Shown here piece by piece: positions 11,921 through 22,140 of a stretch of DNA of 22,140 nucleotides (the first letter of the stretch is position 1; every line of letters starts with the position of its first letter). The stretch comes from a virus (Duplodnaviria > Heunggongvirae > Uroviricota > Caudoviricetes). The stretch is taken from the IMG/VR virus record IMGVR_UViG_2579779149_000003; one strand, written 5' to 3'. The notes under the pieces were generated by a model that saw only the letters and a list, made by a program, of their open reading frames with translations, made no database searches and was not told the origin of the DNA. A program made the position numbers and the translations under genes.

Positions 11921-11995
<75 letters not shown>

Positions 11996-11998
11996 ATA

Positions 11999-12074
<76 letters not shown>

Positions 12075-12076
12075 AC

Positions 12077-12153
12077 TGGACCGCCACCGGGGACTCGAAC
12101 CTCGCACACTCAACTTAAAGGGTTGACGCTCTTTCCTGATGAGCTAGTGGCGG
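12077..12153 (-). tRNA. tRNA-like gene with atypical anticodon loop CCUUUAA (anticodon UUU by position, C at position 33); identity uncertain
   Basis: Acceptor CCGCCAC/GUGGCGG, D-arm GCUC...GAGC, anticodon stem UCAAC/GUUGA, T-arm CGAGG-UUCGAGU-CCCCG (one mismatch), encoded CCA. Packed 2 nt and 1 nt from neighbouring tRNAs. Confidence 0.45.
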
Positions 12154-12154
12154 T

Positions 12155-12230
12155 TGGTGGCCCTTGCTGGATTTGAACCAGCGACCTGGCGATTATGAGT
12201 CGCTCGCTCTCACCACTGAGCTAAAGGGCC
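12155..12230 (-). tRNA. ileZ: tRNA with anticodon CAU (IleX/IleZ-like tRNA-Ile2, or Met)
   Basis: Reverse complement GGCCCUUUAGCUCAGUGGUGAGAGCGAGCGACUCAUAAUCGCCAGGUCGCUGGUUCAAAUCCAGCAAGGGCCACCA closely resembles E. coli tRNA-Ile2 (ileX) and the ileZ gene of lambdoid prophages; T-arm GCUGG/CCAGC is perfect. Confidence 0.8.
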
Positions 12231-15797: not shown

Positions 15798-16076
15798 TTA
15801 CCTCCAGATCCGTTGCTGGTATGTGCGGGATGGGCGCGGTGGGCGTTCGGAATAAGGGAGCCTGACATAGATTATCCAGTGACGATAATCGAGGCTGAGG
15901 GCTTTCTTAATCTCGTATCCGCGTCTGCGATAGTTATGAATTAGCCATTCGGCCTGTTCTTCAGTACATGGGTCATGCTGGAACCAGTCAGATTTGAAAG
16001 TGCGGGAACGCCGCCCGTGCCTGCTGGCAAAGACGGCAGAATCATCAGAATTGTGTAATTTGGTATCGTGCGCCAT
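15798..16076 (-). CDS. Hypothetical nin-region protein (about 93 aa from the internal ATG)
   Basis: ORF 15798..16157; preferred start ATG 16076 (MAHDTKLHNSDDSAVFASRHGRRSRTFKSDWFQHDPCTEEQAEWLIHNYRRRGYEIKK...). No family recognised and the C-terminal end is unusual. Confidence 0.4.
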   Translation of the reverse strand: MAHDTKLHNSDDSAVFASRHGRRSRTFKSDWFQHDPCTEEQAEWLIHNYRRRGYEIKKALSLDYRHWIIYVRLPYSERPPRPSRTYQQRIWR

Positions 16077-16149
16077 CGGTTGTCTCTGCTGGCGCAGCAG
16101 GTGCCAGTTGTTCAGGCTGGCGTGCGAATTGTAAACCAGAATGCCAGGA

Positions 16150-16174
16150 AAAAACAAAACCCGCCGAAGCGGGT
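16150..16174 (-). terminator. Rho-independent terminator downstream of the lipoprotein gene
   Basis: Minus-strand RNA CCCGC-UUCG-GCGGG followed by UUUUGUUUUU (stem 16060-series plus coordinates 16160..16173; a-run 16150..16159). Confidence 0.5.
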
Positions 16175-16908: not shown

Positions 16909-17064
16909 TTACTCCTCAGGTTCGTAAGCTGTGAAGACAGCGACCTCCGTCTGGCCGGTTCGGATTCGTACCTCGCAGAGGTCTTTCCTCGTTACCAGTG
17001 CCGTCACAATGACGGTTAAACAGATGACGATCAGGGCGATTAACATCGCCTTTTGCTGCTTCAT
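16909..17064 (-). CDS. hokD: Hok-family type I toxin (HokD/RelF-like, 51 aa)
   Basis: From the internal ATG at 17064: MKQQKAMLIALIVICLTVIVTALVTRKDLCEVRIRTGQTEVAVFTAYEPEE, recognised as HokD/RelF. The in-frame upstream extension (ORF from 17121) is probably leader sequence. Confidence 0.85.
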   Translation of the reverse strand: MKQQKAMLIALIVICLTVIVTALVTRKDLCEVRIRTGQTEVAVFTAYEPEE

Positions 17065-17275
17065 AGCCTGCTTCTCCTTGCCTTTCGGCACGTAAGAGGC
17101 TAACCTAGATTTGCCGTTCATAGATTGAGCCTCAGATTAATGTTAAGCGTCTTGCAGGACGCGTAATGTTAACTGGGGCTTTTCTCTATCTGCCTTTGGT
17201 GTTCATGCCTGAGACAGATAGCCTCAAGCACCCGCAGCCATTCTACTTAACTCCCGTTACCTCGCCAATATAAAA

Positions 17276-19369: not shown

Positions 19370-20458
19370 TTACCCCCTGAAGCCCGGCGGAATTTCGTTA
19401 TCCGGTTCAGAAATATGATTCACACAACGCTGGTTGTTCGTGCCGCTTACCGGGAGCAACCAGGGGTTCTCAAAATTCCGGTCCGGTCCAAAAAACGTCG
19501 TCGCTCGCTGAACAAATTCCGTTCCCGTTTTCCCGGTAGCCGCCAAGTATCTTGCGTAACGCCTCACGCCATCCAGCATGGCCTCTGGTGGCACCCCCTC
19601 GCGTAATCTGGCCTTCCAGGCACTGAAAGCGGATTTCTTCGGGTTTGCCCCAGCACGCAACGGGTACTCCCGCCAGACCTGTTCGAACACATCCGGATAA
19701 TCCACTCGTCCCACAGACTGCCCGGTGTTTTCCGGGACTACCCGATCGGCTTCCCGCTGAATGGCGGAATCGGCTTCGGGCTGCTGCAGTTGGTGTGATT
19801 GCTCCGGCCTTGCGGTCATCACCTGCTGCACAGCGCCCGAATCGGCTTTCAGCGCATACGCTGAATCGGCTTCCGGTGTCGTGCCTGCTGGCTGACCAAG
19901 ATTGACGGTCTGAACATCCCCTGCCTGGTTCGTGGCGTTTTTTACGCCATGGACCATAGTGTTTTGATCTTCTTGATCTGTATCTTTATCTGTATCTTTA
20001 TCTGTATCTTTATCTGTCGTGACTCGTCGTGACATGTGCGTGACATTTCGTGACGCGCCGTGACAATCGCCATTTTGTTCCCGCTTTCTTTCCCTCTCTC
20101 GCTGCGCCCTCTTGCGCTCTGCAGGAGATTTTGCGGTTTGCGAAATATTGCCGTTGTCCTCTTTAAGCACCTGGCGTTTTTCCCATCCAGTGATTAAATC
20201 ACCATCAAGTACCCGCCCCTGCATCGTCTGCAAAATTGAATCAATTACCTCTTCTGTCACGTCGAGCGCACTTGCCAAATCTTCTGTCGTGACATCAATG
20301 TGACCTCGCGTGACATTTCGTGACGCGCTCACCAGGAGGTGGATATACACTGCCATCACTGTTGCAATTGGCTGCCCTGACACCCTGGCAATTGTTCGCC
20401 ACTTAGGGTCATTTGGCATGTCATGCCATAATCTGAGCCAGGCGTTAGCCATACTCAC
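19370..20458 (-). CDS. Putative replication initiation protein (lambda O-like organisation: iterons inside the gene, O-like C-terminal motif), 362 aa
   Basis: The C-terminal region DVFEQVWREYPLRAGANPKKSAFSAWKARL...FFGPDRNFENPWLLP resembles the F-x-W-x-YP...K...W motif I recall from phage O-type replisome organisers. The gene contains two clusters of CGTGAC direct repeats at helical spacing and an adjacent AT-rich tandem repeat. Confidence 0.7.
   Translation of the reverse strand: MSMANAWLRLWHDMPNDPKWRTIARVSGQPIATVMAVYIHLLVSASRNVTRGHIDVTTEDLASALDVTEEVIDSILQTMQGRVLDGDLITGWEKRQVLKEDNGNISQTAKSPAERKRAQRERERKREQNGDCHGASRNVTHMSRRVTTDKDTDKDTDKDTDQEDQNTMVHGVKNATNQAGDVQTVNLGQPAGTTPEADSAYALKADSGAVQQVMTARPEQSHQLQQPEADSAIQREADRVVPENTGQSVGRVDYPDVFEQVWREYPLRAGANPKKSAFSAWKARLREGVPPEAMLDGVRRYARYLAATGKTGTEFVQRATTFFGPDRNFENPWLLPVSGTNNQRCVNHISEPDNEIPPGFRG
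19981..20016. repeat. AT-rich tandem repeat, 3 x 12 bp (TATCTTTATCTG), adjacent to the iterons (ori AT-rich region analogue)
   Basis: Three exact tandem copies at 19981..20016; on the minus strand they encode DKDTDKDTDKDTD within the initiator protein. Confidence 0.8.
20018..20064. repeat. Iteron cluster 1: five direct CGTGAC repeats at 10-11 bp spacing (putative ori)
   Basis: CGTGAC at 20018, 20028, 20039, 20049 and 20059. Includes the 21-mer GCGTGACATTTCGTGACGCGC that recurs in cluster 2. Confidence 0.75.
20256..20324. repeat. Iteron cluster 2: CGTGAC-type repeats (three direct plus one variant and one inverted copy)
   Basis: GTCACG (inverted) at 20256, CGTGAC at 20288, 20309 and 20319, and TGTGAC at 20299. 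Both clusters encode SRNVT-type peptide repeats in the initiator. Confidence 0.7.
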
Positions 20459-20523
20459 CTCTTTTGATACCGAATCTTTTTACTCACAAATTGCCGGAAG
20501 TGATCCGGTATGAATATTGCGAG

Positions 20524-20949
20524 TCAATGCACAGCCACAATATTTCCTGCAGGGCCACCACGATTCATCTGGTTGAAACCAGCGATCGCCACTGCGACAA
20601 AATCATCAGCGTCTCTCACCAGTCGTTCCCGCGTCTCCACTAGTTCCCGAAAATAGGCTGAGCTATGACTGCGCATTCGGGCCACCAGCAGAGGTGGCAT
20701 TGCTTTTTCGATAGCTGGTAACAACGCCTGAATTTTTTTAACCGCATCAGGGGTGTCTTTCTCCACCCAGCGGAAAATTTTCTGAGTATTGCGAGCCAGG
20801 GCTTCCGGATGGCTGTCGTCATACAGTTCTGGGAACGTCATACCCAGTTCAAAATAAGCCCTGGTTATTTCAGCTGCCGGAACTTTTTCACCGTCCGGAT
20901 GCGCCCAGGCATTCATCGCCATGCGGATGTGTTCATGCTTGATTTTCAT
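20524..20949 (-). CDS. YdaT-like protein (CII-position gene of Rac-type immunity regions), 141 aa
   Basis: Begins MKIKHEHI..., which I associate with Rac YdaT-family proteins; sits between the Cro-like gene and the replication initiator. Identity is from weak recollection plus position. Confidence 0.55.
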   Translation of the reverse strand: MKIKHEHIRMAMNAWAHPDGEKVPAAEITRAYFELGMTFPELYDDSHPEALARNTQKIFRWVEKDTPDAVKKIQALLPAIEKAMPPLLVARMRSHSSAYFRELVETRERLVRDADDFVAVAIAGFNQMNRGGPAGNIVAVH

Positions 20950-21214
20950 GAATCAAGCTCCTAGAAAGTGGTTGTGTTAACGTTTTGGTATCTTCCAGCT
21001 CGGGCCAAATATTCATCCAATCAAAAGGCCTTAGTTGCTGACGTGTAACTTCACCATTACTGGCTCGCTCAATAAGGACACATAACGATGCCCCTAACAC
21101 TTGACCTTTACTCAATGCCTTTCTTAGATAACCGATGCTGGTACCACACTCGCATGCAAACATACGCTGTTCATCTGACGAAAGAGAATTGAGAAATATT
21201 CTTAATTCTTCCAT
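20933..21214 (-). CDS. Cro-like HTH regulator (YdaS/DicC-position), 93 aa
   Basis: Transcribed divergently from the repressor; good SD (AAGGAG 6 nt upstream of ATG 21214); HTH-like segment GTSIGYLRKALSKGQ. Confidence 0.65.
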   Translation of the reverse strand: MEELRIFLNSLSSDEQRMFACECGTSIGYLRKALSKGQVLGASLCVLIERASNGEVTRQQLRPFDWMNIWPELEDTKTLTQPLSRSLIHENQA

Positions 21215-21243
21215 AGCTACTCCTTAGTAAACACAGTAAAGAA

Positions 21244-21294
21244 TACCCGCAGGTAAACAAAAGTCAATACCCACAGGTTGTTTACCTTGCGGTA
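21244..21294. promoter_or_regulatory. Divergent promoter/operator region (OR analogue) with three TACC-N5-GGTA-like 12-mers
   Basis: TACCCGCAGGTA (21244..21255), TACCCACAGGTT (21268..21279) and TACCTTGCGGTA (21283..21294) between the Cro-like and repressor genes. A TATTAT -10-like hexamer lies about 7 nt before the repressor ATG, suggesting a leaderless mRNA. Confidence 0.55.
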
Positions 21295-21314
21295 ATCGCA
21301 TCTATTATTTACCT

Positions 21315-21734
21315 ATGGACAAATATGAATTTAGACGACAGCAACTCATCAAAATTCGTGATGAGAAATGCGATGGTAAAGCGGTTAACGTGGCCAGAAA
21401 GATCGGGCGCGAGCCTTCTTATGTATCAAGAATGTTGTACCCAGAGGGGAAAAAGGGAAAAAAACGGATCGCTGATGATATGGTGGAGATTATCGAAGAG
21501 TCCTTTGGGTTACCCCGGGGATGGATGGATGGTATCGTTTCATCATCAACGAACACAGCCTCCAGTTATGAAACAAGGGTTCTAACGCCACGACAACGTA
21601 TTTTTTTAGATCTCTTAGACGAACTGCCAGAAAGTGAAGCGGATAACTTATTAAAAACTCTTGAAGAGAAAAAACAGTATTACAATATGATCTACGAAGA
21701 AATCCGTAAAAAGAAAGCACAAAACGCATCATAG
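21315..21734 (+). CDS. Prophage repressor (DicA/RacR-like HTH protein), 139 aa
   Basis: HTH GKAVNVARKIGREPSYVSRML; the C-terminal LTPRQRIFLDLLDELPESEADNLLKTLEEKKQYYNMIYEEI resembles the DicA tail (LSPKELELLELFNALPESEQDTQL...) as I recall it. Divergent from the Cro-like gene. Confidence 0.75.
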   Translation: MDKYEFRRQQLIKIRDEKCDGKAVNVARKIGREPSYVSRMLYPEGKKGKKRIADDMVEIIEESFGLPRGWMDGIVSSSTNTASSYETRVLTPRQRIFLDLLDELPESEADNLLKTLEEKKQYYNMIYEEIRKKKAQNAS

Positions 21735-21776
21735 CTCACCAAACAACTAGTCACCAGTTAAGACACCGCAAAAAGT

Positions 21777-21813
21777 TACCCATGGGTATTTACTTTTTAA
21801 ATACCTATGGGTA
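21777..21813. promoter_or_regulatory. Second operator pair (OL analogue) downstream of the repressor gene
   Basis: Perfect palindrome TACCCATGGGTA (21777..21788) and TACCTATGGGTA (21802..21813), same TACC-N5-GGTA family as the OR sites. A possible promoter (TTTACT, 17 bp, TATCCT) overlaps the second site. Confidence 0.5.
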
Positions 21814-21999
21814 TCCTTCTTTTCATACCAACCCACCCCGCCCCACAGAATGCAGGGCAATACTTCGAGTTACCAGGCAGTGGTCAGGGGTTAAGTAGCC
21901 AGCCCGAGGCGTAAGAACATGACGGCAGGGTTCAACTTTAATAACTATGCAGCAGGTTTTTGTTCCGCTACCCCGGCGTTAAGGGGAAATGAGGTCAGC

Positions 22000-22140
22000 A
22001 TGGATACTATCGATCTTGGCAACAACGAATCTCTGGTGTACGGCGTGTTTCCCAACCAGGACGGCACGTTCACCGCGATGACGTATACCAAAAGCAAAAC
22101 GTTTAAAACCGAAAATGGTGCCCGTCGCTGGCTGGAAAGA
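22000..22140 (+). CDS. Hypothetical protein, N-terminal 47 codons (gene runs off the window end)
   Basis: ATG at 22000 with GAGGT SD; translates MDTIDLGNNESLVYGVFPNQDGTFTAMTYTKSKTFKTENGARRWLER. It occupies the position of the first leftward early gene. Confidence 0.4.
   Translation, partial: MDTIDLGNNESLVYGVFPNQDGTFTAMTYTKSKTFKTENGARRWLER

Follow-up and report, generated by a model that had tools for sequence, protein, structure and literature searches.

Genes, repeats and predicted promoters at the locus

The window analyzed here (the whole stretch of 22,140 nucleotides (nt) of the Caudoviricetes virus record IMGVR_UViG_2579779149_000003) contains, towards its right end, a gene for a 139-amino acid (aa) protein named 'hypothetical protein' in RefSeq (WP_000362155). 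This gene is divergent from a Cro-like gene, and five similar 12-bp palindromes (S1 to S5) lie on its two flanks. As judged from their sequence, the palindromes are very probably the right and left operators (OR and OL) of the 139-aa protein, and the region as a whole can be read with good confidence as the immunity switch of a defective Qin-like lambdoid prophage with the 139-aa protein as its CI-type repressor. The features are listed below; PR and PL denote the early rightward and leftward promoters and PRM the promoter for repressor maintenance.

20933..21214, minus strand: Cro-like gene of the YdaS family, 93 aa, divergent from the repressor gene; a homologue is in the same place in most related loci
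21240..21245, minus strand: PR-like -10, TATTCT; predicted start about 21232-21234, followed by a cro leader of about 19 nt with AAGGAG and the cro-like ATG at 21214
21244..21255, no strand: operator site S1, TACCCGCAGGTA, exact; in the PR-like spacer, with its TA common with the PR -10
21262..21267, minus strand: PR-like -35, TTGACT; 9/12 matches in the scan, abuts S2
21268..21279, no strand: operator site S2, TACCCACAGGTT, with one mismatch; lies between the PR and PRM -35 hexamers, its centre at -41.5 relative to the predicted PRM start
21281..21286, plus strand: PRM-like -35, TTTACC; from the scan, TACC common with S3
21283..21294, no strand: operator site S3, TACCTTGCGGTA, exact; overlaps the -35 and spacer of the repressor promoter
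21303..21308, plus strand: PRM-like -10, TATTAT; from the scan, ends 6 nt before the ATG, predicted start at or next to 21315
21315..21734, plus strand: repressor gene, 139 aa; helix-turn-helix (HTH) domain in residues 1-76, disordered linker 77-87, C-terminal helical hairpin 92-138
21777..21788, no strand: operator site S4, TACCCATGGGTA, exact, distal OL; abuts the PL-like -35
21777..21823, plus strand: S4-S5 hairpin of 16 pairs with a 5-nt loop, plus T-rich tail TCCTTCTTTT; possible terminator of the repressor transcript
21789..21794, plus strand: PL-like -35, TTTACT; read from the sequence, aligns with a conserved TTGACx in related loci
21802..21813, no strand: operator site S5, TACCTATGGGTA, exact, proximal OL; in the PL spacer, with its TA common with the PL -10
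21812..21817, plus strand: PL-like -10, TATCCT, 17-nt spacer; predicted start about A21825, toward ydfA-ydfB-ydfC-dicB

The original prediction had placed five 12-mers in these positions and had read them as one family of the form TACC-N5-GGTA. All five positions were borne out and the family holds, but the spacing does not: the N5 form gives 0 matches and the true form is TACC-N4-GGTA. When the window was searched for the latter, four exact copies were found (at 21244, 21283, 21777 and 21802) against 0.13 expected, and four or more exact copies were reached in 0 of 100 dinucleotide-preserving shuffles. A motif search across the prophage, which had also been suggested, covered 41.6 kb of the closest genome (prophage and flanks) and returned no exact copies other than these four. 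At the one-mismatch level, the window contains 6 matches versus 4.77 expected, which is not above chance, and the GGTT site S2 (one mismatch) is not significant alone. S2 was counted as a site because it lies 24 nt from S1 and because 26 of 41 related loci have a one-mismatch site in this slot (see below). A sixth candidate over the start codon (TACCTATGGACA, 21310-21321) was dropped, as it has two mismatches and is not conserved in other loci.

The repressor gene (21315-21734, plus strand) and the cro-like gene (20933-21214, minus strand) are separated by an intergenic gap of 100 bp. The promoter scan returned one promoter-like site on each strand of this gap: minus-strand TTGACT-16-TATTCT (21267 to 21240) and plus-strand TTTACC-16-TATTAT (21281 to 21308). 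Over the 1-kb stretch, promoter-like matches were no more numerous (2) than expected in shuffles (2.1). The divergent genes have predicted back-to-back promoters, as in a lambdoid switch, and three palindromes (S1, S2 and S3) lie over both of them, S2 occupying the 13-nt gap between the PR and PRM -35 hexamers. Counted from the repressor ATG, the OR sites of the window are at -71, -47 and -32. The strings TCAATACC (PR -35 plus S2) and ATTTACC (PRM -35 plus S3) are kept across the related loci. Another string, AGTCAATAC, around the PR-type -35 is common to the window and the K-12 Qin prophage. A small hairpin at 21288-21300 flagged by the terminator scan was taken as chance; it is a 5-bp stem inside the PRM spacer.

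On the other flank, the S4/S5 pair starts 43 nt past the repressor stop codon and the two sites are 25 nt apart. The pair copies the PR design in plus orientation, that is, a site, a -35, a second site in the spacer and a -10 that uses the TA of this site.

Conservation of the sites and of the DNA-binding domain

Related loci were collected with a profile of the N-terminal domain of the repressor, one genome per species. This yielded 41 loci of other species (counts of 42 include the window), ranging from Enterobacterales to Aeromonas, Neisseria, Burkholderia, Ferrovum, Xanthomonas and Stenotrophomonas. They contain 115 exact TACC-N4-GGTA motifs in 207.8 kb, compared with 3.2 expected from base composition, and 61 of the 115 lie 20-90 nt 5' of the repressor ATG, in the OR slot. 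The positions of the sites are nearly fixed across the loci and phage mEp043, at -72/-73, -47/-48 and -32/-33 from the ATG. The first slot is exact in 34 of 41 loci, and the third is exact in 25 and has one mismatch in 8. Exactly one mismatch (GGTT, GGGA or GGTC) was observed for the second slot in 26 of 41 loci, so the weak S2 of the window is a family trait and not decay. With up to one mismatch allowed, S1, S2 and S3 are occupied in 36/41, 27/41 and 33/41 loci, respectively. The four central bases vary, with a preference for Y-R-Y-R, while TACC and GGTA are constant.

These counts bear on the simplest alternative, in which the repeats are chance matches or functionless leftovers of a duplication. 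The one-mismatch count of the window, which is not above chance, would suit it. However, it does not account for the failure of every shuffle to reach four exact sites or for the excess of exact motifs in the related loci, nor for central bases that vary freely between TACC and GGTA half-sites fixed in place across distant genera. This alternative was given next to no probability and is refuted as far as computation allows.

The sites also follow the DNA-binding domain of the repressor. Three loci have an altered version of the helix SYVSRMLY, i.e. L022 (SYVNRIFY), L038 (ASISHMLY) and L042 (ATISHLLL), and the sites are absent in all three. The divergent cro-like gene is missing from four Klebsiella loci. 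S1 and at least one downstream site are present in each of these, and S3 in three. Since the sites are lost with a changed helix and are kept without cro in Klebsiella, they track the DNA-binding domain of the repressor, and they do so in beta- as well as gammaproteobacteria. The correlation between helix and sites (repressor residues 34-42) points to candidate operator-reading residues.

The same observations were used to weigh the possibility that the sites are operators of the Cro-like YdaS-family protein only, the 139-aa protein binding elsewhere or not being a DNA-binding repressor. The YdaS-like gene is indeed co-conserved with the sites in most loci, and YdaS of prophage CP-933P footprints on the intergenic region (PMC8630535). 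However, the Klebsiella loci keep the sites with no divergent cro, the loci were collected through the repressor domain, and the motif vanishes exactly where the recognition helix changes. The 139-aa protein also has a confidently predicted HTH fold and matches a PHROG family of transcriptional regulators (see below). Furthermore, the operators of lambda and CP-933P are shared by both proteins, so that binding by Cro would not exclude the repressor. An assignment to the Cro-like protein alone was considered very unlikely, and we retain the 139-aa protein as the probable ligand of the sites.

The downstream pair and the repressor transcript

A downstream pair of sites 25-26 nt apart is present in about 30 loci, 40 to about 1,800 nt past the repressor stop codon. 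In most loci the first downstream site is followed by GGTA-TTGACx, and the second ends in a TAnnnT hexamer 17-18 nt further on. In the viable lambdoid phage mEp043 and in Escherichia sp. L019, homology to the lambda PL transcript sets in 3' of the -10 of the pair, with the first base of that transcript; the homologous DNA (ATCAGCAGGACGCAC...) contains nutL, and gene N is next in mEp043. Because this homology follows the -10, the downstream pair was identified as OL/PL. A second operator cluster on the early-left promoter is therefore found 3' of the repressor gene, as in a lambdoid switch. The original prediction had recognized an OR/OL arrangement of lambdoid type, and each part of it that a sequence can test was found (divergent genes, interlocked promoters and a conserved PL pair).

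A wider inverted repeat, TACCTG-N10-CAGGTA (equal to TACC-N14-GGTA), lies ahead of the OL pair of mEp043 (L045, 3553-3574). It was also observed about 20 nt 5' of the OL pair in L008, L010, L014 and L019, and it is not in the window. It could be a third OL element with another spacing, a site of another protein or a small hairpin.

The pair at 21777-21813 could instead be mainly an intrinsic terminator of the repressor transcript, with its likeness to OR being incidental. The 16-pair stem and 5-nt loop are followed by TCCTTCTTTT (7 T in 10), the folding energy is -24.1 kcal/mol (z = -5.1), and the terminator scan from the repressor stop codon to ydfA found nothing else that is terminator-like. 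On the other hand, each arm is itself an exact TACC-N4-GGTA palindrome, of which 0.13 were expected window-wide, and S4 and S5 pair with each other because they are similar palindromes, as any two such palindromes would. Only 5 of the 16 stem pairs are G-C. About 30 other loci have the pair with the interleaved -35 and -10, mostly with no T-run, and mEp043 has a separate GC-rich terminator before its OL pair. Termination as the main purpose of the pair was rated as highly improbable, slightly below the assignment to Cro alone. As a secondary role of S4 and S5 in this prophage, and not as the reason for the sites, termination is possible, with roughly one chance in three.

The mRNA of the repressor was also considered. 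A TATTAT hexamer about 7 nt before the ATG had been noted in the original prediction; the hexamer is present at 21303-21308, with a gap of 6 nt to the A at 21315. The claim that a Shine-Dalgarno (SD) sequence is missing was correct, as none of GGAG, GAGG, AGGA and AAGG occurs between -16 and -4, and the proposed leaderless transcript is supported by the comparison of loci. A -10-like hexamer such as TAnAAT, GAAAAT or TTGAAT is found in 35 of 42 loci with its end 6 or 7 nt ahead of the start codon's A, and a TTTACC-type -35 (TTTACC or TTTACT in most loci) is 16-18 nt 5' of the -10. SD-like tetramers were seen in a few loci at or upstream of the -10, and so would be outside the transcript. The start codon is ATG in all 42 loci. 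It is not in doubt, since M1, K3, Y4 and E5 of the repressor are invariant; the first helix of the structural model begins at residue 3. S1 and the cro start codon are anywhere from about 4 to 40 nt apart; the constancy seen on the repressor side is thus no general trait of the region. The gene has the AUG start and the lack of an SD that go with leaderless mRNAs of the lambda cI/PRM type, and the maintenance transcript of the repressor is predicted from sequence to be leaderless, which we consider likely.

Only few leaderless mRNAs are known in E. coli (PMC8630535). One of them is the mRNA of the CP-933P repressor gene paaR2, which was shown to be leaderless by 5' RACE (rapid amplification of cDNA ends) and N-terminal sequencing (PMC8630535).

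Alternatively, the repressor mRNA could carry a leader from an upstream promoter, e.g. a YdaT-activated promoter for repressor establishment (PRE)-like element inside cro/ydaT, and TATTAT would not be a working -10. The number of promoter-like matches in the 1-kb stretch is no higher than in shuffles. The lambda cI gene is also expressed from a leadered PRE transcript. Nevertheless, the distance between operators and ATG differs by no more than 1 nt in most of the 41 loci while that on the cro side varies, the -10-like hexamer keeps its distance from the ATG in 35 of 42 loci, there is no usable SD, and every locus starts with ATG. The repressor of CP-933P, a module of the same kind, has the leaderless mRNA mentioned above, and an additional PRE-type transcript would be compatible with leaderless maintenance. 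A leadered mRNA in place of the leaderless one was therefore regarded as unlikely, though less so than the alternatives described above.

On the cro side, a leader of about 19 nt with AAGGAG is seen in the window and in other Enterobacterales. In loci of Burkholderia, Massilia/Herbaspirillum, Lysobacterales and Xanthomonas/Stenotrophomonas (L024, L026, L029, L030, L032, L034, L037 and L039-L041), the cro-like ATG is 6-7 nt after the PR -10 and about 12 nt left of S1 (e.g. L026, -84 from the repressor ATG). Given this distance from the -10, both switch genes would be leaderless in those loci.

The repressor, its prophage and the proposed switch

When the repressor was compared with protein databases, it matched PHROG 5736 ('transcriptional regulator', E-value 4e-70). 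Pfam, NCBIfam and PDB sequence searches with the repressor or the domain profile found no family or solved relative, except for the DicA-like stretch at the C-terminus. Weak matches to ADAR Z-alpha (E-value about 0.1) were treated as noise. Residues 1-75 share 64-82 % identity with the N-terminal part of 221-242-aa S24 prophage repressors from Salmonella, Klebsiella, Pantoea, Edwardsiella and other genera, and 76 % with mEp043 cI. These long homologues carry Peptidase_S24 (PF00717), whereas the Pfam search of the 139-aa protein did not find an S24 domain. The protein therefore has the N-terminal domain of S24/LexA-type CI repressors and lacks their C-terminal S24 autocleavage domain, and because that domain is absent a direct response to RecA or self-cleavage is unlikely. 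Its C-terminal part resembles DicA (residues 89-134 versus DicA 84-129, 33 % identity over 46 residues), the only part that BLASTP aligns. The protein does not belong to the DicA family NF007257, as its score of 23.9 bits is below the cut-off (101) and the match is confined to residues 86-136. The repressor thus joins a DNA-binding domain of the mEp043 cI type to a C-terminal domain of the DicA type, which makes it a chimera.

An AlphaFold2 model was built with a 44-sequence alignment (mean pLDDT, the predicted local distance difference test score, 87). Helices 3-18, 23-30, 34-40 and 54-63 form the HTH domain. Foldseek returned XRE-type regulators, the best being the Rep repressor of Salmonella phage SPC32H (E-value 8e-4; PDB 5d50/5d4z). 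Rep resembles the model in having an HTH followed by a helical domain, and it is a non-cleaved repressor that is inactivated by, and was solved with, an antirepressor; it differs in its sequence (16-22 % identity), in overall fold similarity (TM-score 0.47) and in its mode of DNA binding. The likeness of the model to Rep is thus a lead on the induction route and not evidence of membership.

Several E. coli genomes encode 135-136-aa variants (proteins P0012, P0013, P0015, P0016 and P0018) that start in the +1 frame with MNLDDSNSS... (open reading frame (ORF) from 21325) and rejoin the repressor frame near the A-runs GGGGAAAAAGGGAAAAAAAC (about 21446-21466). They look like repressor alleles frameshifted at homopolymer tracts, or sequencing errors.

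The cassette and the neighbouring genes are as follows.

20524..20949, minus strand: YdaT/CII-like gene, 3' of cro; Pfam YdaT_toxin, 39.1 bits (cut-off 21)
20956..21820, no strand: immunity cassette (cro, OR, repressor, OL/PL), exchanged as a unit; from the comparison with phage vB_EcoS-689R5
22001..22140, plus strand, running off the window end: start of ydfA, first gene of a dicB-type early-left operon; RefSeq annotation of the homologous CFT073 region

In classical work the immunity region is the unit exchanged between heteroimmune phages. The heteroimmune phage vB_EcoS-689R5 is 97 % identical to the window over 20400-20955 and 98 % over 21821-22140, and between these flanks it has another cro, another repressor and its own palindromes. 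Joint exchange of cro, operators and repressor between homologous phages, as in lambdoid switches, was thus observed, and the right boundary of the exchanged unit falls after the PL -10 and before the predicted start near A21825.

The host element, a defective lambdoid (Qin-like) prophage, lies between potB and potC. Over 20500-22140 the window is 99 % identical to a region of E. coli CFT073 and of many other strains, and the 1.6-kb query region (at least 80 % covered) was found in 813 of 5,426 complete E. coli genomes (about 15 %), including CFT073. The minus-strand order is replication genes, YdaT/CII-like gene and YdaS/Cro-like gene, and the plus-strand order is the 139-aa gene, ydfA, ydfB, ydfC, dicB, ydfD, exo, xis and int. 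The YdaT/CII-like gene matches PHROG 163 ('CII-like transcriptional activator', E-value 1e-45). The 139-aa gene sits where dicA sits in the K-12 Qin prophage, and homology between the window and K-12 begins only at 21962.

An Rfam scan of 21100-22140 found no RNA family. Elsewhere in the prophage, a sok antisense RNA (Rfam RF01794, 110 bits) lies at 17059-17233 (minus strand) with a hokD-type toxin ORF at 16909-17121 (minus strand), and the two represent a type I toxin-antitoxin pair. The late-gene regulatory region contains four clustered tRNA genes at 11924-12230 (minus strand), with Rfam tRNA scores of 44-72 bits; at the matching place in the closest complete genome, only two tRNAs are annotated.

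The architecture is already known from lambda, Qin and, above all, CP-933P, all three experimentally characterized, and it is not a new kind of system. In CP-933P of E. coli O157:H7 (repressor PaaR2, YdaS and YdaT; Jurenas et al. 2021, PMC8630535), the repressor gene likewise faces away from a cro-like ydaS and a cII-like ydaT gene. The intergenic gap measures 97 bp, compared with 100 bp in the window, with back-to-back PR and PRM and palindromic operators over both promoters. CP-933P also resembles the window in having a further repressor-controlled PL and a small non-cleavable repressor. The leaderless repressor mRNA, shown by 5' RACE in CP-933P, is predicted for the window. The systems differ in that the CP-933P operators are 18-bp palindromes on GTTTAGTAA and those of the window are 12-bp TACC-N4-GGTA sites, and in that CP-933P has toxin-antitoxin genes 3' of its repressor gene, which the window has not. 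The comparison with CP-933P covered gene set, layout and operators.

In Qin (Bejar et al. 1988, as cited in PMC10448788), dicBp is under repression by DicA through operators located in the dicA-ydfA spacer. As in the window, the repressor gene is directly 5' of ydfA-ydfB-ydfC-dicF-dicB, and dicBp of K-12 has the design of the window's OL (site, -35, site in the spacer, -10). DicA and the window repressor have homologous C-terminal domains and no Ala-Gly/S24 cleavage module, but the N-terminal DNA-binding domain of DicA is unrelated by sequence, and the divergent gene is dicC in Qin and YdaS-like in the window. A comparison with DicA operators had been suggested in the original prediction; the likeness stands for position and C-terminal domain and fails for the operators, which are of the TGTTAG-N-CTAACA type for DicA. 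The dicC-dicA (1345-1434) and dicA-ydfA (1860-1935) spacers of K-12 Qin (L044) both follow the design just described with TGTTAG/CTAACA repeats, and in their place the window has TACC-N4-GGTA sites.

Lambda shares with the window a tripartite OR between divergent promoters, a cooperative-pair spacing of about 24-25 bp, one site centred near -42 of PRM, a -10 that ends 6 nt before the ATG, and an OL/PL 3' of the repressor gene in the same orientation. In lambda, cI bound at OR2 activates PRM from about -42, and the cI mRNA from PRM is leaderless. The differences are in operator length (12 bp in the window versus 17 bp), S2-S3 spacing (15 nt versus 23), the number of OL sites (two versus three) and the OR-OL distance (about 530 bp versus 2.3 kb), and the window repressor has no S24 domain, unlike that of lambda. 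The DNA-binding side is like that of mEp043 cI and the S24 'LexA family' repressors of Salmonella, Klebsiella, Pantoea and Edwardsiella, which have the same operator motif, spacing and distance to the ATG. They are 221-242 aa long with Peptidase_S24 (PF00717), and the window repressor has a 50-residue helical hairpin instead.

Based on these comparisons, the following mechanism may be proposed. The N-terminal HTH (recognition helix REPSYVSRMLY) would bind, most likely as a dimer, to the palindrome TACC-YRYR-GGTA. If S1 and S2, 24 nt apart, were occupied together, cro, ydaT and the replication genes would be shut down. The centre of S2 is at -41.5 relative to the start of the repressor promoter, a position matching that from which lambda cI activates PRM at OR2, and S3, over the -35 and spacer of the repressor promoter, may mediate negative autoregulation or be the site that the Cro-like protein prefers. 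Occupied S4 and S5 would silence ydfA-dicB. The maintenance transcript would start at the start codon and be translated with no leader, as for lambda cI and CP-933P paaR2. The finer lambda-like logic (S1-S2 cooperativity, activation from S2 and autorepression from S3) is by analogy only and is put forward tentatively, at somewhat less than even confidence.

With a DicA-like C-terminal domain in place of S24, the repressor would not be cleaved on RecA activation, and an antirepressor or instability would be the more likely cause of its inactivation. For DicA, repression is lifted by the antirepressor Rem and through instability (PMC10448788). A Rem homologue was sought beside the DUF968 gene, the place of rem in K-12. 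The ORF at that place, within 15798-16157 on the minus strand, does not resemble Rem, and no antirepressor candidate emerged from the window.

Several points weigh against the proposed switch. Our literature search found no binding, footprint or transcription-start data for the repressor or any homologue. The Cro-like protein may use the same sites, and sequence alone cannot assign a site to one protein. The PL-like promoter of the window is weak (TTTACT/TATCCT, 8/12) and under the scan threshold, and part of the conservation of S4 and S5 in this prophage could serve termination through their hairpin and T-rich run. S2 and S3 are only 15 nt apart from centre to centre, so their joint occupancy may be hindered, and the lambda-like filling order of the sites is an assumption. 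Finally, the switch may be decaying in some strains, given a defective prophage and the existence of frameshifted repressor alleles.

A literature search for the motif and the individual site sequences returned nothing relevant, which does not prove that the motif is unpublished, and none of the papers mentioning mEp043 deals, by title and abstract, with its operators. The operator code and the DNA-binding domain family of this heteroimmune cassette appear to be undescribed and unusually well conserved. As a broader reading, for which the case is evenly balanced, the loci would represent an undescribed Pfam-less repressor domain family (MDKYE...REPSYVSRMLY...GWMD) that keeps its operator code and OR geometry from Enterobacterales to Neisseria, Burkholderia and Xanthomonas while its effector domain is swapped between S24 and DicA-like types. 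In this family the leaderless repressor ATG would be preceded by sites at -72, -47 (weakened in most cases) and -32, with cro leaderless too in beta-proteobacteria and xanthomonads.

A function, an operator sequence and a promoter map are proposed here for the 'hypothetical' protein WP_000362155. The repressor probably silences the cell-division inhibitor DicB and other prophage genes, and its mRNA would be one more probable leaderless mRNA in E. coli. If the broader reading is true, this repressor, carried by a defective prophage in about 15 % of complete E. coli genomes, would provide immunity to functional phages like mEp043 in an SOS-insensitive manner. Cross-immunity is predicted between a cryptic prophage and the live phage mEp043. 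The conservation across the family would represent a compact natural series on how an operator/promoter design tolerates a swapped oligomerisation or induction domain.

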